NCBI GenBank assembly: GCA_001430755.1
Contig: CP013062.1
Span: 720,001 to 752,000 of the forward strand
Origin: Candidatus Peribacter riflensis
GTDB taxonomy: Bacteria > Patescibacteriota > Gracilibacteria > Peribacterales > Peribacteraceae
Direction of reading: 5' to 3'
Length of the DNA stretch: 32,000 bases
A program made the position numbers and the translations under genes. Of the stretch, positions 1,818 to 17,971 are shown piece after piece. How positions within the stretch are numbered: position 1 is the first letter of the stretch; each line of letters opens with the position of its first letter. Under the pieces are notes generated by a model. That model saw nothing but the letters and a program-made list of their open reading frames with translations. It did not search any database and was not told the origin of the DNA.

Positions 1818-3512
1818 TCAGTAGACCTCTTTTAAGTAGCAATTTTCGCAATAAACCTTCTCCGGTTTGTCTGGCGGGTAGGTCGTCTCAATGGGTTTCT
1901 GGCACTTCATGCATTCCCGCTTCCAGAGCTTGCGGGGATTTCTGAGTGCAAGACGACGGTCGTAGCGCTCGTCGGGATGGAGCCGCGGCAGCGGAAGTTT
2001 CTGTCTCCGGTAGAAATCCAGCTCCTGTTTGAGAATCCGGAAAGGACGATGGGTGACGGGGCAGACAATCGCCCAGTTGATGACATCATCGGGAATGTCG
2101 TCTATGGAATCGGGCAGGCTGCCCGCGGGGATCGTTTTCTTCACTTCAGGATTCTTCTCCACGATCTTCCTCCAGTGGAAACCCCGCTCCTTCGCCTCGC
2201 GCTCGGTGAGCGGCATGTACTCGTGTGCCAGCGATTCGTTGTACCCGAATGGTGAGTATTGCGGCGGAAAGTAGAGTCCCCATTCCCCTCCCTTCTGCAT
2301 GTGTTCAATGATTTTTGGAACAAGCTGCTCGTACTCCTCTTTCGCATACTGCTTGTTGAAGATGCAGTACTGCTTGCGCTGCAGCCCCACGCACCCGAAA
2401 CAATCCTTGCAGTGGAAGCAGTACTCGCAGTAGAGCAGATTTTGGCTGTGGAAGACGAAAAGGCAGTAGGCCGTATTGTACGTCTCGATCGTTCCGAGGG
2501 TCTCGTACGCAAGCTCCGGCTTGATGTACATGTTCGAGCAGTCGTAATTATCCTTCACCTGCACTCCCACCGTCACGTACCGGCTGTCCTGGCTCTCATT
2601 CACGTCGTAGCAATCCTGGCAATGTTTGGAATTCTCGATGAAATCGCCCGTGCAGTGCTCGCTGTTCACGATGTTGGCATACCGATGGACCATCTTTTGC
2701 GCCATCTCCATCCACTGTTTCCGCATTGCCTCCATCTTTGCGAACGATCCATGCAACTCCCGGATTTTTCTCTCGTATTCTTCCTTGGAGAGCGGCTCAT
2801 TGAGAAAGTGATACTGCTTCTGGCGGAGATTGGAACAGAGGCAACAATTGCTGCATCCGCTCAAATTTGAGGAAAAGAAACAGTCGCTGCAATTCGTGGA
2901 GAAGGAAACGAAGGAGCAGTTGTAGGACTTGAAGACGCTGAAGCACTCGTAGCAGAGTTCGGAATTATACAAATAGGAACAGTCCACGCTGCTCTTACAG
3001 CTCTGCAGGAGTTTTCCGTAGTAGCAATCCTCGCAGTACTCCGAGGAATTGATGAGATAGCAGTTCCTGCAGTAGCCCGTGCCGGCGGTGTAATCGCAAT
3101 TTTCGTTCCCGATGACCATCGAGCCGAGGCGCGGAACAGCTTTGTGCAACTCGCCAAATTGCACGAAGAACGGACGGGAAAAATCAAAAGGACGACCGTG
3201 CTCCATAAAATCCCTGCCTTCAGCATTCCACTCCTCGTGCGTGTACACGGCATCCGGCGGCCCCCAAAGAGGCTCCTGATGATAGATGGAGACCATGTCC
3301 TTGCCCGTCAGGGTCGCCGTCCTGCGGTAGAAATTGCGCTCGTTCCTGTGGCACGTGCGGATCTTGAGACGGCAATCGGGGCAGTAGACGGGGAGCGGAG
3401 GATGGACCTTCGTTGCACCGAATGTGAATGTCATCTTGCACAGAAACTCCTCCTCATCGGGATGAACCGTGAAGGGTTGCTTGCACCAGGGATTGCGGCA
3501 TAGCTGTTGCAT
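1818..3512 (-). CDS. Cysteine-rich zinc-ribbon ladder protein, paralog 1 of 7 (no recognised family)
   Basis: 564-aa ORF with an ATG start (MQQLCRNPWCKQPF). It has an N-terminal CxxC...CPDC ribbon and two Cys ladders capped by CLCSNLRQKQYHFLNEPLSKEEY and CFGCVGLQRKQYCIFNKQYAKEEY. The C-terminus reads CMKC...YCENCYLKEVY. My hand count gives about 38 Cys. Homologous end to end with six other ORFs here. Confidence 0.92.
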   Translation of the reverse strand: MQQLCRNPWCKQPFTVHPDEEEFLCKMTFTFGATKVHPPLPVYCPDCRLKIRTCHRNERNFYRRTATLTGKDMVSIYHQEPLWGPPDAVYTHEEWNAEGRDFMEHGRPFDFSRPFFVQFGELHKAVPRLGSMVIGNENCDYTAGTGYCRNCYLINSSEYCEDCYYGKLLQSCKSSVDCSYLYNSELCYECFSVFKSYNCSFVSFSTNCSDCFFSSNLSGCSNCCLCSNLRQKQYHFLNEPLSKEEYERKIRELHGSFAKMEAMRKQWMEMAQKMVHRYANIVNSEHCTGDFIENSKHCQDCYDVNESQDSRYVTVGVQVKDNYDCSNMYIKPELAYETLGTIETYNTAYCLFVFHSQNLLYCEYCFHCKDCFGCVGLQRKQYCIFNKQYAKEEYEQLVPKIIEHMQKGGEWGLYFPPQYSPFGYNESLAHEYMPLTEREAKERGFHWRKIVEKNPEVKKTIPAGSLPDSIDDIPDDVINWAIVCPVTHRPFRILKQELDFYRRQKLPLPRLHPDERYDRRLALRNPRKLWKRECMKCQKPIETTYPPDKPEKVYCENCYLKEVY

Positions 3513-3597: not shown

Positions 3598-5247
3598 CTA
3601 ATAGACCTCTTTTAAGTAACACTCCTCGCAGTACACGATCTCCGGCCGCTCGGGCGCATACGTTGTTTCCATGGGTTTCTGGCATTTCATGCAATTGCGG
3701 CTCCAGAGACGGCGCGGATTGCGGCGCCAAATCCGCTCCAGATGGCGCTCGTCGAAGCACGCGCGGGGCAGCGGCAGGTGATGCTGACGGTAGAGAGCGA
3801 GCTCCTGCGGGATGATCTTGTAGGGCTTACCTGTGCGCTCGCAGGTGAGGATCTGCTCCGTGATGTCATCGGGAACGTCTTGGATATCAACAGGAAGAGA
3901 GAGGCGCGGCCCCTGGTAAGCGGATGTCTGGCTCTCGGTGTCCTCGCGCCACTTCCAGCCACGCTTGGCCGTATCATTCTTCGTGAGCGGAAAGTACTCC
4001 TGTGCCACGGTCTCGTTGTAGCCGAAAGGCGAGAGTTCCGCCGGAAGCGGCTGGCCCCACTCCCCTGTTTTCTTCATGTGCTCCACGATCTTCGCCTTCA
4101 GGCGCACGTACTCCTCTTCGGAGTACTGCTTGTTGAAGATGCAGAAGCGCTTCTTTTTCAGCCCCGAGCAGGCGAAGCAGTCCTCGCAGTACTGGCAGTG
4201 ATCCAGATATTGTGAATTCTTGGAGTAGAAGCTCACGAAGGTGAACTGGGTGTTATACTGGTTGATCGTAGAGATGGTCCCGTACGTCAGTTCGCAGCGA
4301 TCCACGACCACGTGACCGTCATAACAATCCTTCGACTTGAAGCTGAAGATCAGGTAGCCGCAATCCTCCAGATCCGCGCTGTCGTAGCACTCCACACAGT
4401 TCCTGCAGTGCACGATGTGGTCGCCCGTCACGTTCTCATTGCCGTTGCCGTCGATATACTGGTGGATCTGCTGCTTTCCGGCCTTCTTAAGAAAGACATC
4501 GCGGGCCGACGAGAGCGTGCGCATATTGCCCGTGTTGAGCTCACTGAGCTTCTTTGCGTACTCCTCTTTGGAATGCTGCTCATTGAAGATGCAATACTGC
4601 TTGTTCCGGAGCCCGAAACAACCGAAACAGTTGTGGCAACCCTTGCAGTCACTGAGGAAGAAGCTGTCACGGCAATTGTGCGACTTCTCGGAGTGGGCGA
4701 GGTTGTAGGACTCCGAGCAATCCACACACTCGATGCAGAGCTCGCACTTGAAGCAGTTCAGGCACTCGATGCAGCTTAAGCAACTGTCGATGCCATAGGA
4801 GTACAGGCAGTCCTCGTCGTGGTCCGAGACGAAGATCATGTGACAGTTCTTGTCCTGCTGCGCACCGTTCGTGTAATCACTGTTCACATTGTTGGAGGTA
4901 AAGACCGAGATCTTCGGCGTGACCTTCATGAGGGCATCGAACTGGGGGGAAAAAGGCCGGTTGAAATCGAAGTCACGACCATGTTCCATGGCATCCCATT
5001 TGTCGGTGTACCACTCGTGCTGATCGTAAACTTTGTAGGGACTGTCCGGCGCATAGACTGAAATGATCTGCTTGCCCGTGAGGTCGCACTTGCGGTGATA
5101 GAGTCGACGCTCGTTGCGCCACGCAAAACGCTCTTGGCGCCGGCACGTGGGGCAGAGAGTCGGATCAGGCAGTGAAACCTTCGTGAGGAATGAATGCTCC
5201 TGCGGCAAGACGGTGAAGGCCGATCGGCAGCGACGGCAGGTGCTCAT
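3598..5247 (-). CDS. Cysteine-rich zinc-ribbon ladder protein, paralog 2 of 7
   Basis: 549-aa ORF with an ATG start (MSTCRRCRSAF). Caps are CFGCFGLRNKQYCIFNEQHSKEEY and CFACSGLKKKRFCIFNKQYSEEEY. The C-terminus is CMKCQKPMETTYAPERPEIVYCEECYLKEVY. Confidence 0.92.
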   Translation of the reverse strand: MSTCRRCRSAFTVLPQEHSFLTKVSLPDPTLCPTCRRQERFAWRNERRLYHRKCDLTGKQIISVYAPDSPYKVYDQHEWYTDKWDAMEHGRDFDFNRPFSPQFDALMKVTPKISVFTSNNVNSDYTNGAQQDKNCHMIFVSDHDEDCLYSYGIDSCLSCIECLNCFKCELCIECVDCSESYNLAHSEKSHNCRDSFFLSDCKGCHNCFGCFGLRNKQYCIFNEQHSKEEYAKKLSELNTGNMRTLSSARDVFLKKAGKQQIHQYIDGNGNENVTGDHIVHCRNCVECYDSADLEDCGYLIFSFKSKDCYDGHVVVDRCELTYGTISTINQYNTQFTFVSFYSKNSQYLDHCQYCEDCFACSGLKKKRFCIFNKQYSEEEYVRLKAKIVEHMKKTGEWGQPLPAELSPFGYNETVAQEYFPLTKNDTAKRGWKWREDTESQTSAYQGPRLSLPVDIQDVPDDITEQILTCERTGKPYKIIPQELALYRQHHLPLPRACFDERHLERIWRRNPRRLWSRNCMKCQKPMETTYAPERPEIVYCEECYLKEVY

Positions 5248-5403: not shown

Positions 5404-6165
5404 ATGGTCATCGCAGAACTTCAGGCACTCGGCTTACAACTGGAAGAAGCGAAGGTCTACTACGCGCTCCTGCAGCTCGGTGGTTCCTATGTGAGCGCGA
5501 TTGCGCGCAAGGCAGGCGTGCACCGCGTCGTCTGCTACAAGATTCTGGATGAGCTGGTTGCGAAAGGTTTGGTGAGTTCATTTCTGAAAAACGGGATCCG
5601 ACACTTCGCCATCGAGAGCCCTCTGATCCTCGTCCGCAAAGAGCAAGAGAAGCTCGAACGCGCCGAGAAGCTTCTGCCTGAACTGCTCTCAATCACCAAC
5701 GCACTCGCCTATAAGCCAAAGATCCAGTACTACGAGGGGCTGGAAGGCATGAAGAACATCTTCGAGGAAACACTCACGGCCAAGGGCGAATTACTCGGCT
5801 ACACGAATCTGGAAGACATCCCCAAAGTCATGCCAGAGGACTTTCTGCGTGACTATGCAAAGCGCAAAATCGCGAAAGGACTTAAGACGCGCATGCTCTC
5901 GCCCCATACGCCGCGGGCACTCAAGTATCTGGAAAAGTATTACCCGAGAGGATTTGATCCGAATCTGGTCGAAATCCTCTTCGTGAACCCGCGCGAATTC
6001 CACTTCGAGTACGAAATCACGATCTACGGCGAGAAGGTGGCGATCCTCTCGCTCAATCCGGAGGAACGCATGGGGCTGATCATCGAGAGTCCGATCTACG
6101 CGCGCACGCAGCGTGCGGTTTTTCAGTTGGCGTGGCTCGGAGCCACGAGCTTCGTGGCGAAGTAG
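5404..6165 (+). CDS. TrmB-family winged-helix transcriptional regulator (copy 1)
   Basis: 253 aa. The N-terminus LGLQLEEAKVYYALLQLGGSYVSAIARKAGVHRVVCYKILDELVAKGLV matches the TrmB wHTH pattern. The C-terminal domain is TrmB-like (YYEGLEGMKNIF...IYGEKVAILS). It is divergent from paralog 2 and convergent with paralog 3. Confidence 0.85.
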   Translation: MVIAELQALGLQLEEAKVYYALLQLGGSYVSAIARKAGVHRVVCYKILDELVAKGLVSSFLKNGIRHFAIESPLILVRKEQEKLERAEKLLPELLSITNALAYKPKIQYYEGLEGMKNIFEETLTAKGELLGYTNLEDIPKVMPEDFLRDYAKRKIAKGLKTRMLSPHTPRALKYLEKYYPRGFDPNLVEILFVNPREFHFEYEITIYGEKVAILSLNPEERMGLIIESPIYARTQRAVFQLAWLGATSFVAK

Positions 6166-6211: not shown

Positions 6212-7894
6212 TCAATAGATCTCTTTCAAATAGCACTCCTCACAGTACACGATTTCGGGCCGCTCGGGAGCATACGTCGTTTCCATAGGTTTCTGGCACT
6301 TCATGCACGGTCGTTCCCAGATTGTCCGCGGATTCTTGAGTGCCATGATCCTTCGATGCCGCTCGTCGGGATGGAAGTGGGGAATCGGGAGTTTCATCTT
6401 TCGATAGAGGTCCAGCTCCTGTCTGATGATCCTGAAGGGACGGCCGGTGGCGTCGCACTTGATGGCCCAGTTCACGATGTCGTCGGGAACTTCATCAATG
6501 GAATCCGGCAGTTTGGATGCGGGAATCACCTTCGCAACCTTCGGCATCTCGTCGTTCTCCTCGCGCCATCGCCATCCCCTCTTCTCCGCATCCTGCTTTG
6601 TGAGAGGGAAGAAATCCTGGGCGACGGATTCGTTGTAGGCATAGGGACTATTTTTTATGGGGAAGAATTCACCGTATTCACCATCGTGCTTCATCCGCTC
6701 AATGATCTTCGGCACCAGCAGCTCATATTCCTCCTTCGTGCACTGTTTGTTGAGAATGCAATACTGGCCGCGCGTGTGCAGTCCGTCGCATCCGAAACTG
6801 TCGGATTGGTAGAAGCAGGAGCTTAAGTAAAGGGAACGCGGGGAGGAGATGGTACAGTAGCAGAAACGCGTCAGATAGCTCTTTTCGCCGCCCGAAGACA
6901 TCTCGTAACAGAGCTCGATATCCTTGTCGTGCGAGGTCAAGTCCATGGAATCCTTTATGCCTTCGCACTCAAAGAGATATTTGGAGTCCTCAATGTTGAA
7001 ACAGTCGGAGCAGTGGATGGCATTGCGGCAATTGGCGAGGTACGCACCCGTGGATCCTTCGCAGTTGAGCTGGATTTGAGAGCGCTTGGGGACGGTCACG
7101 TCGAAGGCAGCAAACTCCTGCAGAAGATCATCCGGAGAAACAGACTGATAGCGCCGGAGGATCTCTTCGAACGCTTCTTTCGTCCTCTGCTCGTTCTTGA
7201 AACAGTACTGCCGGTTATGGATGCCGCTGCACATGAAGCAGTCTTTCACGCCCGAACAATCCCTCAGGTAACTACTGGAGGAACACTGGCGGCAATTCAC
7301 GAGGTGGTGCGCGCCGAAGCAGCCGTCGCAATTGGTACTATCCGCAGTCAGCTCGCAGCAGTTGAGTACATTGGAGTTGGCGCAATCTTTGCAGTACTGG
7401 CTCTTGCGGAGGTAGTAGCAGTCTTCGACGAAGTAGCTCCCCGGACACAGGTAGGCGTTCTTGCTGAAGGCAAGCAGAAGATTAAACTCGCAGTTTTCAT
7501 TGTTGAGTTGAAGAGCAGCGGCCTGCGGCACCCTGTGCTGCAGTTCCTCGAATTGAGCAAAGAAGGGACGGCTCAAGTCGAACTCCTGCCCGTACTGCAG
7601 AGGATCCCAGCGGTCTGACCACCAGCAATCCGTGCAATACACCGGAAAAGGAACATCGGGACCAAAAGAGGAAATGGTCATCTTCTGGCAGAGATCGCAC
7701 ACTCTCCGGTAGAGACAGTGTTCATTGCGGAAAGTCTGCCTGCGCTGCATCCGGCACTCCGGACACAGAGTCGGCGACGGAATCAGCTCCTTTTTGCCTG
7801 CATAGACCGGAGAAATCTCTTCGTAGAACTGGAGATCACTGTCGGTGATCTCGAAGGGCTGCTTGCACCACGTGTTTTTGCAGGTCTTCTGCAT
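6212..7894 (-). CDS. Cysteine-rich zinc-ribbon ladder protein, paralog 3 of 7
   Basis: The maximal ORF is 6212..7921 (569 aa, MTIVATLSLMQKTCKN...). I prefer the second Met at 7894 (MQKTCKNTWCKQPFEI). This aligns with the starts of paralogs 1 and 4. The 27 nt upstream are homologous to the out-of-frame 5' leader of paralog 1 (ccatgacaa...ctacact...ATGCA). Confidence 0.9.
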   Translation of the reverse strand: MQKTCKNTWCKQPFEITDSDLQFYEEISPVYAGKKELIPSPTLCPECRMQRRQTFRNEHCLYRRVCDLCQKMTISSFGPDVPFPVYCTDCWWSDRWDPLQYGQEFDLSRPFFAQFEELQHRVPQAAALQLNNENCEFNLLLAFSKNAYLCPGSYFVEDCYYLRKSQYCKDCANSNVLNCCELTADSTNCDGCFGAHHLVNCRQCSSSSYLRDCSGVKDCFMCSGIHNRQYCFKNEQRTKEAFEEILRRYQSVSPDDLLQEFAAFDVTVPKRSQIQLNCEGSTGAYLANCRNAIHCSDCFNIEDSKYLFECEGIKDSMDLTSHDKDIELCYEMSSGGEKSYLTRFCYCTISSPRSLYLSSCFYQSDSFGCDGLHTRGQYCILNKQCTKEEYELLVPKIIERMKHDGEYGEFFPIKNSPYAYNESVAQDFFPLTKQDAEKRGWRWREENDEMPKVAKVIPASKLPDSIDEVPDDIVNWAIKCDATGRPFRIIRQELDLYRKMKLPIPHFHPDERHRRIMALKNPRTIWERPCMKCQKPMETTYAPERPEIVYCEECYLKEIY

Positions 7895-7914
7895 CAACGA
7901 AAGTGTAGCAACAA

Positions 7915-7983
7915 TTGTCATGGTGAGCTCTGTCGAACCAGGACAATTCCAATGTCATCCTTCGACAGGGCTCAGGATGACAA
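7915..7983. repeat. Intergenic hairpin module between paralogs 4 and 3
   Basis: ttgtcatggtgagctctgtcgaa (7915-7937) pairs with ttcgacagggctcaggatgacaa (7961-7983) at 20 of 23 positions. An alternative perfect 7-bp hairpin is gtcatcc (7954-7960) / ggatgac (7975-7981). The module is homologous to 3533-3593. Confidence 0.65.
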
Positions 7984-7988: not shown

Positions 7989-9680
7989 CTAATAGACCTC
8001 TTGTAAGTAACACTCCTCACAGTACACGATCTCCGGTCTTTCCGGCGCGTACGTGGTTTCGACAGGCTTCCGACACTTCATGCAGCTGCGGCTCCAGAGG
8101 CGGCGGGGATTACGAAGCGCCATGCGCTGACGGTGGCGTTCATCGGGATGGAAGTGCGGGACGGGAAGCTTCATCCTGCGATACAGATCCAGCTCCTGCC
8201 TCACGATCTTGAACGGACGTCCCGTTGCCTCGCAGGTGACCGCCCAGTTGAGAATGTCATCGGGAACATCGTCGATGGAGGCCGGCAGTTTCTCAGCCGG
8301 AATCGTCCTGCTTACCGAAAGCTGCTCCTGCTTCTCTTCCTTCCACGGAAATCCCCTCTTTCGGGCTTCGGACGGCGTGAGCGGGAAGAACATGTGCGCC
8401 GTCGTCTCGTTATAGGCGAACGGAGCGACACCAGCCGGAAAGAACTCACCCCACTCACCGTTCTTCCTCATGAGCTCGATCACCCGGGGGACAAGCTCCC
8501 CGTATTCCTTCTGCGTGTACTGCCTGTTGAGCACGCAGTACCTGCCGGGCTTCATACACACGCACCCGCACATGTCCGATCCTGTCTGAATGATGTCGCA
8601 GTAGAGCAGGTTCTTCGACCCCCATGACCCGTGTGTGAAGAGTGCGTTGTAGGAGCCGTACCCGAGGCTCAGGGAGTCGTACCCGAGCTCGGCATCCGTC
8701 GTGTGGCACACATCCATGAGGTCTTTGATCTGAAATCCCGTGAAGATGTAGGAGCAATCCTCTCCGTATGAGACATCGAAGCAGTGACGGATGTTCTTGG
8801 AATCCTTGAGGTAATCCCCCGTCACGTTGTCACAGCTCACCACCTCGCGCGCACGGTGGATACTCTGCTCTTTGAGGGCGGAAAACTCCCGCAGCACCTC
8901 CGCGAGTCCCCCGCCCGCCACGCGATCCATGATTTCCTTCTTCAGGCGCAGATATTCCTCCTGCGGATACTCCCGGTTGCGGATGACATTTCGCTTATTG
9001 CGCAGATTGGTGGAGAGCAGACACTCGGTGCAGCCTTTGCAATCGAAGAGGAAGGCGGAAGAGGAACAATTCGTGCAATTTTGTGAGAAGGAGAGCGAGT
9101 GGCACTTGTCGACATCGGTCACCTCGAAGCAGTAGTGCGATTCGGTGCAATCCACGGTGTCCACGCATCCGGTGGATTTGATGACCTGATACCCATACAG
9201 ACAATCCTCGTTAAATTCCGCAGCAAAGATCAGGTAGCAGTTCTTGTTACTGCCGGAGTGATTGATGAAATCGGAATTCTCGTTATTCACCACGTTGAGC
9301 GCCATGCGTGGCACGGCATTCTGGAGCTCTTTGACCTGAGCAAAGAACGGACGGTTAAAATCTACTGCGCGACCGTACGTGAGCGGATCGTTTTTGTCGG
9401 ACCACCAGCACTCCGTGCAGTAGACGGGAAACGCCGAACCGGCAGGGTACATCGAAATGATGGATTTCTTACATAGATCGCACGTCCTGCGATACAGACT
9501 GCGCTCGTTCCTCCAGAAAAGCCGGCGCTGCTGCCGGCAGTCGGGGCAGAGAGTCGGAGGAGGAATGGAAAATTTTTTGCCCCCGAAGACGGGAGAGAGC
9601 TTGTCGAGAAGGGCAAGGTCATCCTGCGTGACCTCGAAGGGAGTGCCGCACTGTGAACAGGACTTCTGCACGACCTCCAC
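7989..9680 (-). CDS. Cysteine-rich zinc-ribbon ladder protein, paralog 4 of 7
   Basis: 563-aa ORF whose first start is GTG at 9680 (VEVVQKSC). A second GTG at 9671 would give MQKSCSQCGTPFEV, matching the paralog 1 and 3 starts. The C-terminus is CMKCRKPVETTYAPERPEIVYCEECYLQEVY. Confidence 0.9.
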   Translation of the reverse strand: MEVVQKSCSQCGTPFEVTQDDLALLDKLSPVFGGKKFSIPPPTLCPDCRQQRRLFWRNERSLYRRTCDLCKKSIISMYPAGSAFPVYCTECWWSDKNDPLTYGRAVDFNRPFFAQVKELQNAVPRMALNVVNNENSDFINHSGSNKNCYLIFAAEFNEDCLYGYQVIKSTGCVDTVDCTESHYCFEVTDVDKCHSLSFSQNCTNCSSSAFLFDCKGCTECLLSTNLRNKRNVIRNREYPQEEYLRLKKEIMDRVAGGGLAEVLREFSALKEQSIHRAREVVSCDNVTGDYLKDSKNIRHCFDVSYGEDCSYIFTGFQIKDLMDVCHTTDAELGYDSLSLGYGSYNALFTHGSWGSKNLLYCDIIQTGSDMCGCVCMKPGRYCVLNRQYTQKEYGELVPRVIELMRKNGEWGEFFPAGVAPFAYNETTAHMFFPLTPSEARKRGFPWKEEKQEQLSVSRTIPAEKLPASIDDVPDDILNWAVTCEATGRPFKIVRQELDLYRRMKLPVPHFHPDERHRQRMALRNPRRLWSRSCMKCRKPVETTYAPERPEIVYCEECYLQEVY

Positions 9681-9797
9681 TGTAAGCGAGACGAGCGGAT
9701 GAGCAACTCAAAAGAGTCTTCATGGAGAAATGAGTGGAATAGGGCTCCAGTAAGCCATTTTCAGAGATCGGATATTCTCAGATTCCTGTGAAGATCT

Positions 9798-10598
9798 TTA
9801 CGCTCCGACGCCATTCCCCCACATCCGCTCGAACTGGTCGCGGTAGAGCGCAACCATTTCGGGATGCCGGATGATGACCACCCGTGGATGCTCCTGATCG
9901 CAGATAAAGTGGCGGACATGATCTTTGGTGTACCCCAGGTAATCCCTTGCAACGGGGATCGTGTCTACAAGGCGTGTGGTTCGCAGCTCCTTACTGTCAC
10001 GTTTGGCAAATGTTTCGGATTCGGGGGAATGTGTGTTGAAAACGCGGCAGAACATGTTCCGGCTGAAACGCTTGTGGCGGAACGCCAGCTCCTCGGGCGC
10101 TTCGTCGGACATGCCGGCGATATTCCAGTAATTCTGCATCGATCCCATGCACAGAAACTCATCATCGCAAAAATCGGGAATTTTGAGGTACTCTTCCCGG
10201 AACGCATCCAACCCTTCGCGCACCTCGATCATTTCCCCATCCGTGTTACGGACATCAGCAGATTCCATGCGATCCAGAAACGGCAGGAACCGGTCGAGAT
10301 CCTGCAATGCAAGCTGCACGCGACGAAGTACACGTTGCTCGGTACCAAGTTTTTGAATGAGACCCTTCAGCGTGAGCGGTGCGTACACCGATTGCTTGCG
10401 GTTCACCTTGAGCGCCTGCACCAGTCCCCGATCCTCAAGACGCTTCATGGTCCGGTAGGCCGTCATCACATTGATTCCGCTCCCGCCGATCAGCTTCGGC
10501 ATGGCCGCGCGCTTGTGCTTGAGGAGCTCAAGGTACAGGGTCACCTCCTCTTCACGGAGGCCAGAGAGCCGTAGCAGATCCTGGAGTCTTCGGCGCAT
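9798..10598 (-). CDS. TrmB-family winged-helix transcriptional regulator (copy 2)
   Basis: 266 aa with an ATG start. LSGLREEEVTLYLELLKHKRAAMPKLIGGSGINVMTAYRTMKRLEDRGLV matches the TrmB wHTH pattern. It is co-directional with the array and sits between paralogs 5 and 4. Confidence 0.8.
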   Translation of the reverse strand: MRRRLQDLLRLSGLREEEVTLYLELLKHKRAAMPKLIGGSGINVMTAYRTMKRLEDRGLVQALKVNRKQSVYAPLTLKGLIQKLGTEQRVLRRVQLALQDLDRFLPFLDRMESADVRNTDGEMIEVREGLDAFREEYLKIPDFCDDEFLCMGSMQNYWNIAGMSDEAPEELAFRHKRFSRNMFCRVFNTHSPESETFAKRDSKELRTTRLVDTIPVARDYLGYTKDHVRHFICDQEHPRVVIIRHPEMVALYRDQFERMWGNGVGA

Positions 10599-10641
10599 GG
10601 GGAAAGTATAGAAGACGGAAAGAGGATGTAAAGTTAAGTTG

Positions 10642-12294
10642 TCAATACACCTCCTTCAAGTAGCACGCCTCGCACAAAATCCTCCCGTCATACTCCTTGG
10701 GCCAGCTCGTCTGCGTTTCTTTCTTACACTTCCCGCACGCCATTGTCCGGAGCTCGCCATTGAAGGGAATCAGGCGGAAATTCTCCTGCAATCTTCGCAT
10801 GTAGTACGTATACGGAAGCGGAACCTTCAAATCCTGCGCGAAAACCACATCCTCTTGAAGAATTTGGAAGGGACGACCGGCAACCGGATCCCAGTAGGGC
10901 GACGTGGTCACGGATTCATCTGCATGATCACTGCGATCGGGGACTTCGGAGGCATCCCGCGTGTCCGACTCACGGTGCTCTTCCCTCTCGCGCATCCGAA
11001 ACCCTCTCTTCTTCCCCTCTGCGGTCATCATCGGCCAGACGAAACCTGCCAGACTCTCTTCGTAAGGATTTGCTGCAAAGTGTGGCGGAAAAAATTGGCC
11101 GTATTCACCCGTCTTCTTCATTGCCGCAATCACTTCTGCCTTTTTTCGCTCGAATTCCTTGGGTTCATAGGGCTTGTTAAAAATGTGATATTCCTTTCCC
11201 ACGAGCCCGCAGCAACCGAAGCAGTGCTTGCATTGGAAACACTGCGCGCAGTACTCCATATACTTGCACTGCATGACGTTGTAGCCGAATTTCACGTCAT
11301 AGCATTTGTCCTGCGGCTCGGTCGATCCGTACACGAGTTCCGATCCTACGGCGGCACACACGGTATCCAGGCAATCCTTGCCGCCGAATCCGCGAAACAC
11401 ATGCATACAATCCTCCAGTTCGTCGACGAAGAAGCAGTTCGTACATCCCTTGCTTGAGTAGATGTAATTGGAATCGCCACACTCCTGGCACTGATCCATG
11501 AAGATAGCGCGGTGCCAGGCATTCTCTTTCAGCATCTTCCCGAATTCCTTCTTCGCGTGCTCATAGACGGCGCGCGACCGCAGATCCCAGGACTCAAGAC
11601 GCTTCTTATATTCCTCCTTCGTCAGCTGCTGATTGGCGAAGCAGTACGACTTGTTGCGAAGATTGGTGCAGAAGAAACAGTGATTACAGTTGCGGCAGTC
11701 GTAGAGGAACGCGCTCTCCGTACACTGCCAGCAATTCAGCGTGAACACGGAGCGAAAACACAGATGACTGTTGATGAGGTCAACGGAACGTTCACTATCG
11801 TAGGAGAAGACACCGAATTGGCTGTTCTTCACGTTAAAGACCCGGTAGCAGTAACGAAGATCTTCGTCGTTCAGTCCTGAGTGGCAGAGATAGCAGTTCT
11901 TGCTGTACCACCAGTCATCCGTGTACTCACAATTCTCATTGCCCGTCCCCACATTGTGCGCAATGGGGCAGCACCGGAAAAGCTCCCACATCTGCGGGAA
12001 AATCGGCTTGGTGAGATCGACCTCCGCGGAAGGTGGATCGGCATGCTTGATCCACTCATCCTTGTGCCACACGGGGTAGGGACAGTCCTGCGAAAAGACA
12101 GAAACGATCTGCTTACCGGTCTTATCACATTTCCGTTTGTGCAGCGCCCAGTGCTGCCAGAAAGCGCCGAGGATCTGCCAACGCGCAATCGGGTGGAGAG
12201 AGGGCTCACCCTCAATACCAAGCTTCTTTCTAAGCTCCATCTCGGCAGGAGCCACCTCGAATGTTTTGCCGGTGACGGGGCAGATTTTCGGCAT
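10642..12294 (-). CDS. Cysteine-rich zinc-ribbon ladder protein, paralog 5 of 7 (most divergent)
   Basis: 550 aa with an ATG start (MPKICPVTGKTFEV). It keeps the caps (CFFCTNLRNKSYCFANQQLTKEEY, CFGCCGLVGKEYHIFNKPYEPKEF) and the C-terminus CGKC...ILCEACYLKEVY. The N-terminal CPxC knuckle is lost (LHPIARWQ). Confidence 0.9.
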   Translation of the reverse strand: MPKICPVTGKTFEVAPAEMELRKKLGIEGEPSLHPIARWQILGAFWQHWALHKRKCDKTGKQIVSVFSQDCPYPVWHKDEWIKHADPPSAEVDLTKPIFPQMWELFRCCPIAHNVGTGNENCEYTDDWWYSKNCYLCHSGLNDEDLRYCYRVFNVKNSQFGVFSYDSERSVDLINSHLCFRSVFTLNCWQCTESAFLYDCRNCNHCFFCTNLRNKSYCFANQQLTKEEYKKRLESWDLRSRAVYEHAKKEFGKMLKENAWHRAIFMDQCQECGDSNYIYSSKGCTNCFFVDELEDCMHVFRGFGGKDCLDTVCAAVGSELVYGSTEPQDKCYDVKFGYNVMQCKYMEYCAQCFQCKHCFGCCGLVGKEYHIFNKPYEPKEFERKKAEVIAAMKKTGEYGQFFPPHFAANPYEESLAGFVWPMMTAEGKKRGFRMREREEHRESDTRDASEVPDRSDHADESVTTSPYWDPVAGRPFQILQEDVVFAQDLKVPLPYTYYMRRLQENFRLIPFNGELRTMACGKCKKETQTSWPKEYDGRILCEACYLKEVY

Positions 12295-12414: not shown

Positions 12415-14112
12415 TTAATAGACTTCCTTCAGGTAGCACTCCTCGCACAACACGGTTTCCTTGCGCTCAGGCGAGAACGTGGACTCCATTGCCTTGCCGC
12501 ACGCGGAGCACGGCCGATTCCAGAGCCGGCGGGGAGGACGCAATGCTGTTCTTCGATCCTGCCGCTCCTCCGGATGCAGGTGCGGGAGCGGGAGATCATG
12601 CACACGGTAGAACGCGAGCTCCTGCTTCACGATGCGGAAGGGGCGGCCGGATACTGCGGATGTCACCGCCCAGTTCAGGATATCATCGGCCTTCGCCAAG
12701 GCTACGGCCGACGAGTCGGGAATTTCCGCGATTGTTTCCGGTAATTTCGCCGCGGCGATGACTTTTTGCACGTCCGGCTTCTCATCCGATTCATCGCGCC
12801 ACGGATAGCCGCGCTTGAGAGCCTCATCTTTGCTTAGAGGGAAGTACTCCATGGCAATCGACTCGTTGTAGGCAAAGGAACTCATGCTCTTGGGGAAGAA
12901 TTCCCCGTACTCTCCGGCTTTCTTCATATGAGCGATGAGTTTTTCGCGCAGTTTCTCGTACTCATCTTTCGTGTACTGCGTATTCAGAATGCAATACTGC
13001 TTCTTCTTCAGGCCCACGCAGCCGAAGCAATTTTTGCATCCCGTACAGCTGTCCAAATATTCGCAATCGCTCATATTCGTCGTGCACATGGTCGAGAATT
13101 TCAGATTGTAGACGTTGTTGCCGCATGCACCGCACTGGTACGCACGCTCCACATTATCGCCCCAGAAGGTGTAATCCATGGAAGACTTCACCCCCATGGA
13201 AACCCGCTGACAGTAGCGGCAATCCTCCAGATCCTTACAGTCCATGCAATAGAAGGCATTGCGGGTGTTACTGATGTGATCGCCCGTCGAGTGCTCATTG
13301 TGCTCGCCCTGCACGTAGCGCTGCGGCTGGGCGCGGAAGAATTCCGTCACGTTCTTTCTCACCATGGCGATGCCGGAGGAGGTATCGAGCCTGAGGGTCG
13401 TTTTCCGCTTCTCGTATTCCTCTTTCGTGAGCTGTTCATTCAGGATCATGAACCGTTTCTGGCGCTGATTGGCGCAAGCGATGCAGTCACGGCATCCGAT
13501 ACAACTTTTGAGGAAGTAACTGTCCGAACAATTGTGACAGTCCTGTGAAAAAAACAGGCTGTGACAATCGATGCAATCCAAACACTCGTAGAGAATTTCA
13601 CTCTTATGACAATTGAAGCAATCCACCATGTCCTTGCAGTGGTAGACACGGTTTGAGTAGAGACAATCCTCAACGTAATCCGCTTCCGCGATCAGGTAAC
13701 AGTTTTTGGAATACCCCGCATTGTTCACATAGTCGCTGTTCACCATCGTCCCCTGAATCACGAAACGCGCCTGATGAGGAACGCGATTCCTGAGCTCCAT
13801 GAATTGTTCAAAGAACGGACGGGAAAAATCGATGTCCTGCCCGTACGTGAGCGCGTCCCAGCCATCACCCCACCACGCTTCGGGGCTAAAGACCGGAAAG
13901 GGATGATCGGCGTGAAACTGCGACAGAATCCGCTCCCCCGTGAGGTCGCACGTTCTCCAGTAAAGCTTGCGGGAATTGCGCTCGAGCAGGCGCCGCCGGA
14001 GCCGGCACTCGGGACACGATTGAGGAGCGGGAACTTCAAAATCATCCAAAAACCTCTGATCATCCGAAGAAATTTCGAAACTCGAGCCGCATTCGACGCA
14101 CTTTCCAAGCAT
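12415..14112 (-). CDS. Cysteine-rich zinc-ribbon ladder protein, paralog 6 of 7
   Basis: 565 aa with an ATG start (MLGKCVECGSSFEI). Caps are CIACANQRQKRFMILNEQLTKEEY and CFGCVGLKKKQYCILNTQYTKDEY. The C-terminus is CSACGKAMESTFSPERKETVLCEECYLKEVY. Its start lies only 3 nt downstream of the paralog 7 stop. Confidence 0.92.
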   Translation of the reverse strand: MLGKCVECGSSFEISSDDQRFLDDFEVPAPQSCPECRLRRRLLERNSRKLYWRTCDLTGERILSQFHADHPFPVFSPEAWWGDGWDALTYGQDIDFSRPFFEQFMELRNRVPHQARFVIQGTMVNSDYVNNAGYSKNCYLIAEADYVEDCLYSNRVYHCKDMVDCFNCHKSEILYECLDCIDCHSLFFSQDCHNCSDSYFLKSCIGCRDCIACANQRQKRFMILNEQLTKEEYEKRKTTLRLDTSSGIAMVRKNVTEFFRAQPQRYVQGEHNEHSTGDHISNTRNAFYCMDCKDLEDCRYCQRVSMGVKSSMDYTFWGDNVERAYQCGACGNNVYNLKFSTMCTTNMSDCEYLDSCTGCKNCFGCVGLKKKQYCILNTQYTKDEYEKLREKLIAHMKKAGEYGEFFPKSMSSFAYNESIAMEYFPLSKDEALKRGYPWRDESDEKPDVQKVIAAAKLPETIAEIPDSSAVALAKADDILNWAVTSAVSGRPFRIVKQELAFYRVHDLPLPHLHPEERQDRRTALRPPRRLWNRPCSACGKAMESTFSPERKETVLCEECYLKEVY

Positions 14113-14115
14113 CGA

Positions 14116-15804
14116 TCAATATACTTCCTTCAAATAGCATTCCTCGCAATAGACGATCTCGGGCCGCTCCGGCGCATAGGTCGTTTCGATCCCCTTCTTG
14201 CACTTGGCACACTGGCGCTTCCAGAGCTTATAGGGGTTGCGCGAAGCCATTCTCTGCTTATGGCGCTCATCGGGATGCAAATGCGGCACGGGGAGCTGCA
14301 TCTTCCGGTAGAAATCCAATTCCTGTTTGACGATCTGAAACGGGCGAGCCGTCGCCTCGCACACGATGGGCCAATTGAGGATGTCGTCGGGAACACCGGC
14401 AATATCCTCCGGCAGCTTGTGGCCGGGAATTGTCTTCCCTGTCTTGGGAGCCTCTTCTGTCTCGTCGCGCCAGCGCCACCCATTCTGCATGGCAGATTCT
14501 TTCGTGAGCGGGAAGTACTCCTGAGCGATGGTTTCGTTGTACGCAAAAGGACTGAGGTCTGCCGGCAGGTACTCGCCCCACTCGCCGCTGGCACGCATCG
14601 ATGCAATGATTTTCGCCACCAGATTTTCGTACTCGTCCTTTGTATACTGCTTATTCAGGATGCAGTAGCGTTTATTCTTGAGCCCCACGCAGCCGAAAAT
14701 ATTACTATTATGGTGACACTCGAGCGAATAGTAGATGTTGGATCCGTACCAGACGTAGAAACAGGCCATCGATGATTCCAGATCGACCGTGGAACAGACG
14801 CTGTAGCAGTACCGGTCTCCATCCGGAGCGCAAAAAGCACAGTCCTGCGTGCAGAGGGTTTTCGGCGCAAAGTAAACGTTTCGGCAATCTTCACAGTCCT
14901 TGCAGTCGAAGGCGTTCGAGCAATTTTTGGAATTGTACACACTGTCCCCCGTGCAGTTTTCGGAAGCATAGATGTGCGCATGTGGGTGGGGCAGTGATGC
15001 CTTGATTTCAGAGAGCGTCTGCCGAAGATAGCCGATGCCCCCCTGGGAAAGCGCGGAATATTCCTTTGTAAGGCGTGCGTACTCCTGCGCTGAATACTGC
15101 TTGTTGAAGATGCAGTACTGCTTCGCCCGCAAGCCGAAACAACCGATGCAATCGGTGCAGCCCAGACAGTCTTCGATCATCGTGCAGTTGCGACAGTTCC
15201 GGCAATTCACGAAAAACCGGCAGCCGTAGCACTGCTCGGATGCCACACCCTCGTAACAGAGTTCGCTGGAGTACACCGCCAGACAGTCAACGCAGTCTTT
15301 ACAGTACACCACGAATTTCCCGTAGAGGCAGTCTTCGTTGTCCCCTGCACCGAAGATCAGGTAACAGTTCTTCTGGTTCAAGGCATAGTTCGTGTAGCTG
15401 CTGTTCTCGATATTCGTGTTATACAGGCCGACATGGGGAACTTCCGCATACAGCTCTCTGAGCTGCTGTCGCATCGTCTTGGAAAAGTCGTATGCACGAC
15501 CATAGGAGAGCGCCTCCCATTGGTCCCCCCACCATGCATCGCGGTCGTAGACCTTATACGGCATATCCGGAGCATAGATGGAGAGGATGGGTTTGCCGGT
15601 CAGGTCGCAGGTGCGGCGGTAGAGCTTGCGCTCATTGCGAAAAGAAAGGCGCAGTTGTTGTCTGCATTGCGGGCACCGCGTCGGCGGTGGAATGAGCTGT
15701 TTCAAACCACTGAAGACCGGTGAAACACTTTCGTAAAACGTGAGATCCCCCTCTGCGATCTCGAAGGGCTGCTTGCACCAGCCGTTGCGGCAAATCTGCT
15801 CCAC
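14116..15804 (-). CDS. Cysteine-rich zinc-ribbon ladder protein, paralog 7 of 7
   Basis: The maximal ORF is 14116..15870 (584 aa), with a TTG start inside the M23 peptidase gene. A GTG at 15804 gives (M)EQICRNGWCKQPFEI. That aligns with the other paralog starts, gives 562 aa, and removes the 41-nt overlap. Confidence 0.88.
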   Translation of the reverse strand: MEQICRNGWCKQPFEIAEGDLTFYESVSPVFSGLKQLIPPPTRCPQCRQQLRLSFRNERKLYRRTCDLTGKPILSIYAPDMPYKVYDRDAWWGDQWEALSYGRAYDFSKTMRQQLRELYAEVPHVGLYNTNIENSSYTNYALNQKNCYLIFGAGDNEDCLYGKFVVYCKDCVDCLAVYSSELCYEGVASEQCYGCRFFVNCRNCRNCTMIEDCLGCTDCIGCFGLRAKQYCIFNKQYSAQEYARLTKEYSALSQGGIGYLRQTLSEIKASLPHPHAHIYASENCTGDSVYNSKNCSNAFDCKDCEDCRNVYFAPKTLCTQDCAFCAPDGDRYCYSVCSTVDLESSMACFYVWYGSNIYYSLECHHNSNIFGCVGLKNKRYCILNKQYTKDEYENLVAKIIASMRASGEWGEYLPADLSPFAYNETIAQEYFPLTKESAMQNGWRWRDETEEAPKTGKTIPGHKLPEDIAGVPDDILNWPIVCEATARPFQIVKQELDFYRKMQLPVPHLHPDERHKQRMASRNPYKLWKRQCAKCKKGIETTYAPERPEIVYCEECYLKEVY

Positions 15805-15829: not shown

Positions 15830-16366
15830 CTAGGCGCCCGTCGTGTTCTTAATGACCTGATTCGCCGCAAAGGTCATGGAGAGGTACGGCTGCGCAGCCG
15901 GCGTGAATTGCGCATGCTGGTGCAGGTTCTGCTGTTGCCAGAGCCTGGTCACTTCAGAGCAGTCCATCGCCCCATCGTAGCCGTTCTCTTTGTTCTGGAC
16001 GACGCCGTTCTTGAGGAGCTTGAATGTCCAGTGCAGGTGCGGGCCGGTGGAGCTGCCGGTATTGCCGCTCAACGCGACCGGATCGCCCTGCGAGATGGGC
16101 TGCCCGTTCTTCACGGTGACCTGTGAGCAGTGGGCAAGGACGCTGCGGCGCGTGGGGCCGTCGATGACCACGTACTTGCCGTAGCCTGTCGCCCCGTCAT
16201 CCTTCACCGTTACAACACCGTCATGCGGCGCGAAGATCTTCGTGTCCTCGGGCACACCGAAATCGAACCCGTTGTGACCGAGCCAGCCGTACTGCTGGTA
16301 GATCTCTTTATTCTGACCGAAACCCTGCGTGACGGTGGGCGTACCGGGGAGCGGAGAGAAAATCAC
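15830..16366 (-). CDS. M23 (LytM-type) metallopeptidase, no signal peptide seen
   Basis: 178 aa with a GTG start. The M23 signatures HNGFDF (HxxxD) and SGNTGSSTGPHLHW (HxH) are both present. It lies immediately upstream of paralog 7. Confidence 0.85.
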   Translation of the reverse strand: MIFSPLPGTPTVTQGFGQNKEIYQQYGWLGHNGFDFGVPEDTKIFAPHDGVVTVKDDGATGYGKYVVIDGPTRRSVLAHCSQVTVKNGQPISQGDPVALSGNTGSSTGPHLHWTFKLLKNGVVQNKENGYDGAMDCSEVTRLWQQQNLHQHAQFTPAAQPYLSMTFAANQVIKNTTGA

Positions 16367-16396: not shown

Positions 16397-16780
16397 TTAC
16401 CGCGAAGACGCCGATGCGCCAGTGCCGCCGATCTGAGACTGGAAGAACGCGATGATCGGCTTGTCGCCCGTGAGGCAGGTGGTACCCGTCCAGAGGAAGG
16501 GAACACCCACGCTGTCGGTGGCGTAGCCGCAGTCCTTCGCGTGCCGCGCCATCTCGCGCGCATTGGATTTGTTGTAGTACACCTCTTTACGCGTGAAGGA
16601 GATCTTCTCCTCTACGTTATTCTCCTCAACGAAGGCATCCACAATGGCGCAGTGGGGGCACCCCTGCCCGTAGTACAGCACCATCCCTGTCGTCTCGCTG
16701 CCATCCGAGGACCGTGCGAGAAAGAAGACCACGACGAGGAACACAATCACGCCGGCAAAGCCGAGGAGCATGGTGCGCAT
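16397..16780 (-). CDS. Membrane-anchored thioredoxin-fold protein (CPHC active site)
   Basis: The maximal ORF reaches 16966 (189 aa). Its first ~47-62 codons have noncoding-like third positions. Met63 (16780; MRTMLLGFAGVIVFLVVVFFLA) follows AGGAAG and gives one TM helix plus YYGQGCPHCAIVDAF. Met48 (16825) is an alternative start. Confidence 0.7.
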   Translation of the reverse strand: MRTMLLGFAGVIVFLVVVFFLARSSDGSETTGMVLYYGQGCPHCAIVDAFVEENNVEEKISFTRKEVYYNKSNAREMARHAKDCGYATDSVGVPFLWTGTTCLTGDKPIIAFFQSQIGGTGASASSR

Positions 16781-16975
16781 CCCGCTCTTCCTGCCGTTTT
16801 CCTGTGACCAGTGGAGTGATGACATAGCCCACACAGGGTAGCGAGAAATACGCACTTGTCTACTGCGAAGACCATCTTCGTGGAAGCATCGGTTGGTAGC
16901 AACCATGCAGGAAAGGCTCACAGAGCGCAAATACTGACATAAGATGCCAGAGGTCAGGAAGGTCATACCCCCTCC

Positions 16976-17971
16976 TCAGGTAGAGGATACTGCCCCGGCA
17001 AGAACCGCGTTGAACAAGTAACCGGTGAAGAGGATCCCCATCCCCACGACGAACGCGAATGTCAGGATGAGCCTCGTTTTCATCACGCGGCGGAGGATGA
17101 GAAATTCCGGCAGCGACAGACCCGTGACCGCCATCATGAATGCGAGGGACGTTCCGGCCGCCACCCCCTTCTCCGCAAGCACCGCCACGAGCGGCATGAT
17201 GCCCGCCGCATTGGCATAGAGAGGGATGCCGAGCAGCACCGCGAAGGGAACGGCGTACCAGCGATCGGCTCCCGCATAGGCAGCGAGGAAATCTGCGGGA
17301 ATGTACCCGTGCATCCACGCGCCGACTCCCACCCCCAGCAGCACGATCCACCACACGCGCTTCAGGATCATCCGCGTGTAGCGCTGTGCGAACGCGAGGC
17401 GCTCCGGCCACGTCTCCGGCCGTTTTCTGGCACTGTTCTGTGGGCCCTCCCCTCCCCGATCCACCAGGTGCTCGAGCTTCAGCGCTCCCAGGATCATGCC
17501 GGCGACGATCGCAATGGTGAGTCCGCTCACCATATAGAGGAGCGCGATTTTGAGCCCGAATGTCGCGAAGAGGAGCGCGAAGGCCACCTCATTCACCATC
17601 GGCGACGCGATGAGGAAAGTGAAGGTCACTCCGAGCGGCACTCCGGCCTCCAGAAACCCAAGGAAGAGTGGAATGGCGCTGCAGGTGCAGAAAGGCGTGA
17701 CGACGCCGATACCGCCCGCCATCACGTGCCCCGCCAGGCGCCCGCGGCGCGAAAGGAGGGAGCGGATCCGCTCCGGCGGGATGAAGGTGCGGATGACCGT
17801 GACAACATAGATGATGACGATGAGCAGCAGAAAGATCTTGAGCGTGTCTTCGATGAAGAAATGGATTGCCTCGGCCAGATGCGACTCTGGGCGAAGCGAG
17901 AGCACACCATACGTCATGGCATCGGCGAAAACGGCAAGAGGGCGAAAGAGATTCATGATCGGTGAATGCAT
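16976..17971 (-). CDS. COG0701 / ArsP-type (PF03773-like) permease
   Basis: 331 aa and polytopic. The motif VVTPFCTCSAIPLF is characteristic of this permease family, whose members are commonly paired with a small thioredoxin-fold protein. Confidence 0.8.
   Translation of the reverse strand: MHSPIMNLFRPLAVFADAMTYGVLSLRPESHLAEAIHFFIEDTLKIFLLLIVIIYVVTVIRTFIPPERIRSLLSRRGRLAGHVMAGGIGVVTPFCTCSAIPLFLGFLEAGVPLGVTFTFLIASPMVNEVAFALLFATFGLKIALLYMVSGLTIAIVAGMILGALKLEHLVDRGGEGPQNSARKRPETWPERLAFAQRYTRMILKRVWWIVLLGVGVGAWMHGYIPADFLAAYAGADRWYAVPFAVLLGIPLYANAAGIMPLVAVLAEKGVAAGTSLAFMMAVTGLSLPEFLILRRVMKTRLILTFAFVVGMGILFTGYLFNAVLAGAVSST

Follow-up and report, generated by a model that had tools for sequence, protein, structure and literature searches.

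Cysteines phased at every third residue in a tandem protein family of Candidatus Peribacter riflensis, and their possible place in a 12-residue beta-solenoid

The antifreeze protein of Tenebrio molitor (TmAFP) is a right-handed beta-helix built from 12-residue TCTxSxxCxxAx coils, with intracoil disulfides between residues i and i+6 and a TxT ice-binding face. Pentapeptide-repeat proteins form a quadrilateral beta-helix from A(D/N)LXX repeats, with five residues per side, 20 per coil, and a core of Leu and Phe. Stacked cysteines have been described within a beta-helix lyase, whose crystal structure includes an internal ladder of five stacked Cys that is said to stabilise the fold and not to act in catalysis (PMC9410043). 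The Cys-rich proteins of Peribacteria in the literature are large, exported, and of the DUF4215 type (PMC4736985), and belong to a different family from the one we describe here. This family is represented by seven tandem minus-strand paralogs of 549-584 amino acids (aa) with 33-41 Cys each (6-7% of residues), encoded in a 32,000-nucleotide (nt) stretch of the Candidatus Peribacter riflensis genome (GCA_001430755.1, contig CP013062.1, positions 720,001 to 752,000; hereafter, the window). Each protein carries two cysteine-rich modules, or ladders. The original prediction, made from this DNA alone, was that the ladder cysteines keep a strict period of three and form either the core of a very tight beta-solenoid, as in TmAFP, or a serial array of Zn(Cys)4 or Fe-S sites. 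We focus on the first ladder of paralog 7 and its homologs to assess the phasing, its probable structural basis, and the competing explanations.

Cysteine phasing and the 12-residue repeat

Ladder 1 of paralog 7 lies at nt 15112-15366 on the minus strand, which corresponds to aa 169-253 of a 584-aa open reading frame (ORF), with residue 169 at nt 15364-15366 and residue 253 at nt 15112-15114. On retranslation, the Cys positions claimed for this ORF (169, 181, 190, 193, 196, 205, 214, 217, 223, 226, 229, 235, 238, 241, 244, and 253) were exact and the spacings (12, 9, 3, 3, 9, 9, 3, 6, 3, 3, 6, 3, 3, 3, 9) were reproduced; 16/16 Cys share one phase, for which the chance is (1/3)^15, or ~7e-8. 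The in-phase non-Cys residues had been listed as small or hydrophobic; I, A, N, G, V, V, S, G, S, F, and I are indeed there, while L247 and K250 near the end were missing from that list. Ladder 1 of paralog 2 (nt 4591-4845, aa 135-219) also holds 16 Cys in a single phase, as had been predicted, including the eight-Cys run CLSCIECLNCFKCELCIECVDC. The closest homologs of paralog 7 are 562 aa long and cover 96% of the 584-aa ORF, so the GTG at 15804 is its probable start. Thus, going forward, we use the 562 numbering (584 numbering minus 22), in which the ladder spans aa 147-231, unless noted otherwise.

We evaluated the phasing in an alignment of the seven paralogs and 270 homologs. The ladder 1 phase is kept in 7/7 paralogs, rare CC doublets excepted. 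Across 276 homologs, which have a mean of 14.2 ladder-1 Cys per protein, the dominant phase holds 96.8% of these Cys and 66% of the proteins are perfectly phased; the phasing that the original prediction had put at risk of being lost in a homolog alignment is therefore a family trait. In residue shuffles, 46% of ladder-1 Cys fall in the dominant phase (maximum 85%). When whole proteins are considered, the distance from one Cys to the next is a multiple of three in 80% of cases (spacings up to 30); the commonest spacings are 3, 9, and 12, and a spacing of 4 is rare (148 vs 3691 for a spacing of 3). The second ladder had been described as mostly in phase with register shifts; its dominant phase holds only 59% of its Cys, and the register shifts are there, coinciding with 2-residue indels relative to ladder 1. 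A DNA tandem repeat would be a trivial cause of phasing; none was found under the ladder, which rules out this cause and indicates that the phasing is maintained by selection at the protein level. Every-third-residue phasing of Cys is real, conserved, and far beyond chance.

The sequences further suggest that period 3 is a sub-harmonic of a 12-residue repeat. When ladder 1 is cut in rows of 12, eight to nine successive rows have common column identities, and pooling eight coils over 277 sequences gives the consensus C-[EK]-[ND]-C-[YLIV]-[YFL]-[CGS]-x-[GND]-[CLSA]-x-[NG], present in ~9 copies. Cys is most frequent at coil position 3 (67%, with 19% S), followed by position 0 (48%, with 17% S), position 6 (29%, also G, S, and I), and position 9 (26%, also L, S, A, and V). 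In paralog 7, position 3 is a stack of 8 Cys (147, 159, 171, 183, 195, 207, 219, and 231). Taken together, the in-phase positions are 43% C and 16% S, and 93% are small or aliphatic (C/S/A/G/T 73%, V/I/L/M 20%), with 1% each of DEKR and FYW; Gly reaches at most 14% at any inward coil position. The out-of-phase positions have 1% Cys, 26-31% charged residues, and ~20% aromatics. The typical turn-formers N, D, and G are abundant at coil positions 2, 8, and 11, each directly before an inward position. This composition pattern would be the hallmark of a very narrow lumen enclosed by a four-sided coil, with three residues to each side.

To follow covariation, Cys presence or absence at variable in-phase columns was treated as a binary character, and phi coefficients were compared by separation. 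Columns 12 residues apart have a mean phi of +0.18 (20 pairs, none below -0.06), and columns 6 apart one of -0.18 (minimum -0.52); at 3, 9, 15, and larger separations it is ~0. Classes 6 and 0 (mod 12), compared up to a separation of 24, are clearly distinct (Mann-Whitney p ~1e-7). This fits a 12-residue coil with limited lumen volume, in which stacked neighbours would co-vary and opposite residues would exclude each other. Used as a detector of disulfide or ligand pairs, pairwise Cys co-occurrence yielded no clean pairs (maximum phi 0.49), and its dependence on separation was the sole informative signal.

Conservation helps to distinguish packing residues from ligands. The ladder-body Cys are 34-89% conserved, and most disappear one by one, independently of each other; one subfamily has jointly lost C195 and C207 and retains C192 and C204. 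The replacements (n=1,459) are S/A/G/T in 71% and V/I/L/M/F/Y/W in 25%, and the H/D/E fraction is 0.00, as no ladder-body column has any of the three among its top six replacements. An internal control comes from the zinc-ribbon Cys of these proteins, which are 90-100% conserved, C66 excepted (69%), and 16% of their replacements are H/D/E. Ladder 1 of the homologs contains 8-20 Cys, and low-Cys members hold S, V, I, L, A, or G in phase. Together with the replacement pattern, these members indicate that the invariant is "small or aliphatic every third residue" rather than "Cys," which counts against a series of Zn(Cys)4 or Fe-S sites along the ladder body.

Predicted structure and competing explanations

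The full-length AlphaFold2 (AF2) model was built from an 87-sequence alignment and has a mean predicted local distance difference test (pLDDT) score of 86.8 and a predicted template-modelling (pTM) score of 0.87. DSSP assigns beta-bridges 160/172/184/196, 165/177/189/201, 190/202/214, and 131-133/143-145 to this model, all 12 apart. A domain-only model (pLDDT 80.3) has bridges at every third residue from 202 to 235, each one after an inward position, and is most confident (pLDDT 87-95) on the Cys-richest last coils. Independent small zinc knuckles, the outcome that the original prediction had named as its refutation, are absent from the models, which instead have predicted i/i+12 bridging. In Foldseek searches of the PDB, the top 50 matches of both models are all left-handed beta-helix proteins (gamma-carbonic anhydrases, YrdA, LpxA/LpxD, GlmU, AGPase, and eIF2B), superposed with E of at least 7e-3, TM scores up to 0.28, and a root-mean-square deviation (rmsd) of 8-13 Å. 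Such poor superposition would be expected of a locally solenoid-like geometry with a different coil size (12 vs 18 residues). Foldseek matches in BFVD are also largely of solenoid type, including hexapeptide-repeat proteins, acetyltransferases, collagen-repeat proteins, and baseplate or tail-fibre proteins.

Altogether, sequence, covariation, and structure prediction make it reasonably probable that the ladder is the thiol- and hydroxyl-packed lumen of a 12-residue beta-solenoid. The period-3 Cys would be the inward-pointing residues of a very narrow solenoid whose coil has four short sides of three residues, with positions 0, 3, 6, and 9 facing the lumen. Stacking of ~nine coils would make position 3 a continuous column of up to 8-9 Cys and position 0 a second, partial column. 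The lumen would admit only small or aliphatic side chains, and in this Cys-rich lineage of the candidate phyla radiation (CPR) reduced Cys would be the preferred filler, with Ser, Ala, Gly, Thr, Val, or Leu able to take its place. Cys in the ladder body would then be packing residues, a free-thiol "cysteine ladder," rather than obligatory metal ligands or disulfide staples, and residues i and i+6 would seldom both be Cys, presumably for want of space across the lumen.

The end of the ladder differs from its body. The only full turn with Cys at all four inward corners is the terminal one (C213-C222; Table 1), and its CxxCxxCxxC cysteines are 85-94% conserved. This segment has the top pLDDT of the domain model (87-95). 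C231, nine residues further on, is replaced by Y or H, with His in 37 sequences. The terminal turn is a candidate single Zn site capping the solenoid; together with the C/H/Y nine residues on, it would probably close the solenoid around one bound Zn. With respect to compartment, no signal peptide and no hydrophobic or transmembrane segment was found (maximum KD19 1.25), and the N-terminus opens with a CxxC zinc ribbon, from which we infer that the protein is cytoplasmic and its thiols presumably reduced. The whole would most likely be a ~560-aa soluble cytoplasmic protein that acts as a rigid, Zn-stabilised binding scaffold, and our working inference is that this scaffold is under TrmB-like control.

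Several observations weigh against the solenoid, and some of them would favour a metal-filled ladder, in which stacked CxxC pairs or CxxCxxC runs each bind Zn, Fe, or Fe-S, either in a metal-centred coil or as independent knuckles. The structural evidence for the solenoid is wholly predictive. Confidence in ladder 1 is only moderate, with pLDDT of 62-77 for the full-length model and 57-95 for the domain model, which would fit a missing metal cofactor, and the two models disagree in their DSSP assignments over the N-terminal half, where the domain model has longer continuous strands. Foldseek gave no significant match (best E 7e-3 in the PDB and 1.3e-3 in BFVD, TM up to 0.35, rmsd 7-13 Å). The strong preference for Cys (43%) over Ser and Ala is unexplained if size alone counts. 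The +12 covariation is also compatible with shared metal sites, as are C192, C195, C204, and C207, which are mutually positive (phi 0.14-0.39). A metal ladder would further account for CxxC pairs that recur every 12 residues, for the His at C231, and for a C201-C231 pattern (C-x2-C-x2-C-x5-C-x2-C-x2-C) that recalls the two-zinc CXXC domain, with weak matches; the protein is also cytoplasmic and has proven-type zinc modules at both ends. We nevertheless regard a metal-filled ladder as unlikely, since body Cys are less conserved than those of the zinc ribbons and are lost singly to Ser, Val, Leu, or Gly and almost never to H/D/E. Natural members have anywhere from 8 to 20 ladder Cys, C195 and C207 can go while C192 and C204 stay, and the ferredoxin, CXXC, and zinc-finger models all score below threshold, with no CxxCxxCxxxCP motif. 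Of the serial metal array in the original prediction, the ladder body is thus disfavoured, and the idea stays open only at the terminal CxxCxxCxxC turn.

The solenoid could also be an AF2 artefact that conceals a polyproline II (PPII) bundle like that of the snow-flea antifreeze protein, or a metallothionein-like or partly disordered cluster; a period of three is also the natural period of PPII helices. In addition to the lack of a significant structural match and the differences between models, pLDDT falls to 57-68 over some stretches of the ladder. When given perfect repeats, AF2 has a documented tendency to over-predict beta-solenoids with high confidence, including implausible features such as stacked buried charges (PMC11795689). 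By contrast, the ladder coils are highly diverged and have no underlying DNA repeat, and the predicted lumen positions are 1% charged, without the stacked charges that are the hallmark of artefactual models. The 12-residue register, the N/D/G turns, the uncharged in-phase positions, and the +12/-6 covariation are evident before any model is built. The inward positions are not dominated by Gly, as in a PPII bundle, and aromatics are abundant here, which argues against a metallothionein. An artefact is therefore quite unlikely. A disulfide-stapled solenoid like TmAFP, in which an oxidised or exported protein would form a rigid, flat-faced helix with intracoil disulfides, shares the 12-residue coil with four small inward residues per turn, and a related genome has a DsbA/thioredoxin-like gene after its syntenic paralogs. 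We consider it very improbable because Cys at i and i+6 are anti-correlated rather than paired, because the protein has no signal peptide, transmembrane segment, or TxT arrays and its terminal zinc ribbons indicate a reducing compartment, and because it has no PDB sequence match and structural neighbours of the opposite hand. Lastly, a thiol-lined lumen could itself be functional, by binding a linear chain of metal ions or conducting sulfur or electrons along the axis; it would then be a metal or sulfur "wire" or store, encased in protein, in the CPR cytoplasm. We hold this to be improbable; if true, stacked Cys columns would run ~4.8 Å apart over ~9 coils, twice per protein, and the 7-8 ancient paralogs per genome would offer different specificities.

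Protein architecture, gene array, and family distribution

Profile comparisons suggest an A-B-B'-A' architecture with a mirror-like internal duplication (Table 1). The two ladder modules align with a probability of 99.9% and E 1.3e-35 in HHalign (aa 118-262 vs 270-410, with 2-residue indels), and domains A and A' with a probability of 99.8% and E 4.8e-29 (aa 1-117 vs 476-562). Both ladder modules start with a conserved (V/L)PH...EN(S/C) motif, and the helical cap comes after a conserved FGLxxKxYCIxNKQY(S/T)KEEY motif. The C-terminal CxxC-x17-CxxC spacing is exact (C554, C557, C575, and C578 in the 584 numbering), with Cys that are 97-100% conserved. Domain A' matches PF23477 at 17.8 bits (cut-off 27), some homologs have a precomputed PF23477 match, and a LIM-like PDB match to this domain has E 0.002. 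Motifs of the CxxC-x17-CxxC type bind Zn in archaeal small proteins (PMC12704099). Domains A and A' thus appear to be zinc-ribbon or treble-clef modules with a basic helix. Mean net charge varies along the protein, from +6.5 in A' to -3 to -4 in the solenoid modules and -8 in the linker. Two long homologs, P0122 (808 aa) and P0248 (828 aa), have C-terminal extensions of ~250 aa in which no Pfam domains were found; these could be read-through or fusion artefacts (e.g., in code-25 Gracilibacteria) or genuine extra domains.

Table 1. Positions in the window of the domains of paralog 7, of the seven paralogs, and of the regulators within the array (aa in 562 numbering for paralog 7).
Feature	Position (nt)	Strand	Description
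Domain A, aa 1-117	15454..15804	-	N-terminal, zinc-ribbon-type, basic helix CPxCRxQRRLxFRNERxLYxRxC; pLDDT 89-98
Module B (putative solenoid 1), aa 118-236	15097..15453	-	~9 coils, from coil register, AF2 bridges, and covariation
Terminal turn CLGCTDCIGC, C213/C216/C219/C222	15139..15168	-	Cys at all four predicted inward corners
Helical cap after solenoid 1, aa 237-272	14989..15096	-	DSSP helices 239-248 and 254-270
Module B' (ladder 2), aa 273-386	14647..14988	-	Diverged duplicate of B, register shifts
Domain A', aa 476-562	14119..14379	-	C-terminal copy of A, ends CxxC-x17-CxxC (C532, C535, C553, C556)
Paralog 1 (564 aa)	1818..3512	-	Module B 2718-3149, CxxC-x8 pattern (9, 3, 9, 3 spacings)
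Paralog 2 (549 aa)	3598..5247	-	Ladder 1 with eight consecutive CxxC-spaced Cys
Paralog 3 (569 aa)	6212..7921	-	Module B 7118-7543
Paralog 4 (563 aa)	7989..9680	-	Module B 8889-9326
Paralog 5 (550 aa)	10642..12294	-	Module B 11548-11982; most divergent, 29-33% identity
Paralog 6 (565 aa)	12415..14112	-	Module B 13354-13794
Paralog 7 (562 aa)	14116..15804	-	Probable start GTG 15804, by homolog length; 584-aa ORF from TTG 15870
TrmB-like regulator within array	5404..6165	+	PF01978, E 1.6e-12
Second TrmB-like regulator within array	9798..10598	-	PF01978, E 1.7e-9

The seven paralogs share 29-48% identity, and four of the seven have clear orthologs at 66-74% in a related Peregrinibacteria genome (L001). 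The low identity between paralogs and high identity between orthologs indicate that the duplications are old and the copies individually conserved. The L001 locus is a syntenic array with eight paralogs, three TrmB-like regulators (at 1-124, 2230-3021, and 4945-5706), a VirD4/DUF87-like ATPase, and the DsbA/thioredoxin-like gene that follows the paralogs. Its ATPase, a 791-aa VirD4/TrwB/DUF87-like protein (PF02534, DUF8128), is encoded at 7520-9895 (+) inside the array; there is none in the array of the window. Paralogs 6 and 7 are probably co-transcribed; 3 nt separate paralog 6 (14112) from the stop-side boundary of paralog 7 (14116).

Over 79 related loci, at least two family ORF matches lie within ~8 kb in 59, of which some may be one gene split by code-25 UGA codons. 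The only recurrent partners are the TrmB-like regulators (~250-265 aa), found by BLAST in 24/79 loci and by neighbourhood clustering in 22 + 5 loci, and the VirD4/DUF87-like ATPase (6 loci). Neither suffices to assign a function to the family. One of the regulators has weak CasR/CARF-HTH-type PADLOC matches (E ~2e-4), which probably reflect merely a shared winged helix-turn-helix.

Other features of the window include long antisense shadow ORFs on the plus strand over the paralog genes (e.g., 13774-14775, 10639-11457, 6929-7618, and 2259-2870), with homologous shadow ORFs in 48/79 related loci. Codon composition of the family genes, rather than real coding, most likely explains them. Immediately upstream of the array, on the minus strand, are an M23 peptidase (15830-16366), an unannotated 189-aa ORF (16397-16966), and an ArsP_1-type permease (16976-17971), none of which recurs beside family genes elsewhere. 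Apart from this peptidase and permease, the rest of the window is ordinary chromosome and encodes DnaX, SHMT, dCTP deaminase, 5-FTHF cyclo-ligase, tRNA-Val, and a DUF4215/TIG protein. The last of these (28101-31286, minus strand; 1061 aa) combines nine DUF4215 (Myxococcus-type Cys-rich) repeats with a TIG domain. It is one of the large, exported Cys-rich proteins known from Peribacteria (PMC4736985) and has no relationship to the ladder family.

The family is large. We found at least 5,671 matches in 90% clusters, all named "hypothetical," and 5,522 representatives of 50%-identity clusters at E up to 1e-3 (2,369 at E up to 1e-30). A genome scan placed the family in metagenome-assembled genomes of Peribacteria, Peregrinibacteria, Gracilibacteria, and Abawacabacteria, with several copies per genome. 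Pfam, NCBIfam, and PADLOC returned nothing for the ladder, and Pfam and NCBIfam gave no above-threshold match for the whole protein. In the PDB, searches with a single sequence and two profiles matched the C-terminal LIM-like finger and otherwise no more than non-significant fragments of CXXC or NPC2. A preprint on CPR protein families makes no mention of the ladder family. Among phage sequences, the only PHROGs family to match is phrog_15341, listed as of unknown function; its 276-position profile matches paralog 7 (aa 150-227, E 1.5e-5) and paralog 5 (aa 264-362, E 4.5e-4), and a tblastn search of two ladder modules against 50,697 phage genomes found no match. In BFVD, a 69-aa protein of Campylobacter phage CP20 aligns over 35 residues (40% identity, rmsd 0.9 Å); this alignment probably falls on the terminal CxGCxGLxxKxYC motif.

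The family would partly explain the high Cys content reported for Peribacteria proteomes. Peregrinibacteria and Gracilibacteria with small genomes keep 7-8 ancient copies, which amount to ~1% of a 1.3-Mb genome. If the solenoid is correct, it would provide a structural handle on >5,500 clusters (50% identity) without an above-threshold Pfam or NCBIfam match, and such a regular, rigid, Cys/Ser-tolerant scaffold could interest protein designers.

Comparison with known systems

Left-handed beta-helices are the sole structure kind among the top 50 PDB matches of both models, and the ladder resembles them in its predicted parallel stacked coils, short strands, and small or aliphatic inward residues. 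They differ in having an 18-residue, three-sided coil with a period-6 motif, whereas the ladder has 12 residues, four inward positions, and period 3; no Hexapep match was found by Pfam in the ladder, even at E up to 10. The last three ladder coils (C-x2-C-x2-C-x5-C-x2-C-x2-C...C) are reminiscent of the eight-Cys, two-zinc CXXC domain (PF02008; KMT2B, PDB 4pzi), the ladder's sole sequence neighbour in the PDB. The matches are non-significant (PF02008 in 3/48 members, best E 0.23; PDB 4pzi, E 0.45-1.6), several of the eight Cys are only 55-64% conserved in the ladder, and the KFGG motif is absent. For ferredoxins and polyferredoxins, the Pfam scans found no Fer4 family, and there is no CxxCxxCxxxCP motif.

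In pentapeptide-repeat proteins, each side of a four-sided coil consists of one short repeat, and N or D precedes the inward residue, features which the ladder would share. The ladder differs in its three residues per side, 12 per coil, and Cys/Ser core, and has no Pfam pentapeptide match. The fucoidan lyase FdlA is alike in its stacked Cys column inside a beta-helix; its single five-Cys column lies within a large right-handed helix of the pectate-lyase type with an ordinary aliphatic core (PMC9410043). The ladder coil would be much narrower than that of FdlA, with Cys at 43% of all lumen positions.

The comparison with TmAFP, which the original prediction had offered as the analogue, holds for geometry and fails in detail. 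The ladder would share with TmAFP a 12-residue coil, four small residues facing inward in each turn, a lumen of Cys, Ser, and Ala, and the lack of a conventional hydrophobic core; the 12-residue repeat, the predicted i/i+12 bridges, the solenoids among the Foldseek matches, and the covariation all agree with a tight beta-solenoid. Unlike in TmAFP, where Cys at i and i+6 are disulfide partners, these are anti-correlated in the ladder family, the paralogs have 0-3 TxT tripeptides each and no signal peptide, and no sequence relationship between TmAFP and the ladder was found among PDB chains. The structural neighbours of the ladder model are left-handed and TmAFP is right-handed, the ladder lumen tolerates Leu and Val, and the ladder protein appears to be cytoplasmic and multidomain, with zinc ribbons. 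The ladder protein is thus neither a relative of TmAFP nor its mechanistic copy. If the solenoid is correct, bacteria would have a cytoplasmic counterpart, free of disulfides, to the 12-residue coil of insect antifreeze proteins, the tightest known beta-solenoid. Built on stacked reduced Cys, this counterpart would illustrate how such a fold is kept stable under reducing conditions with hardly any hydrophobic core.

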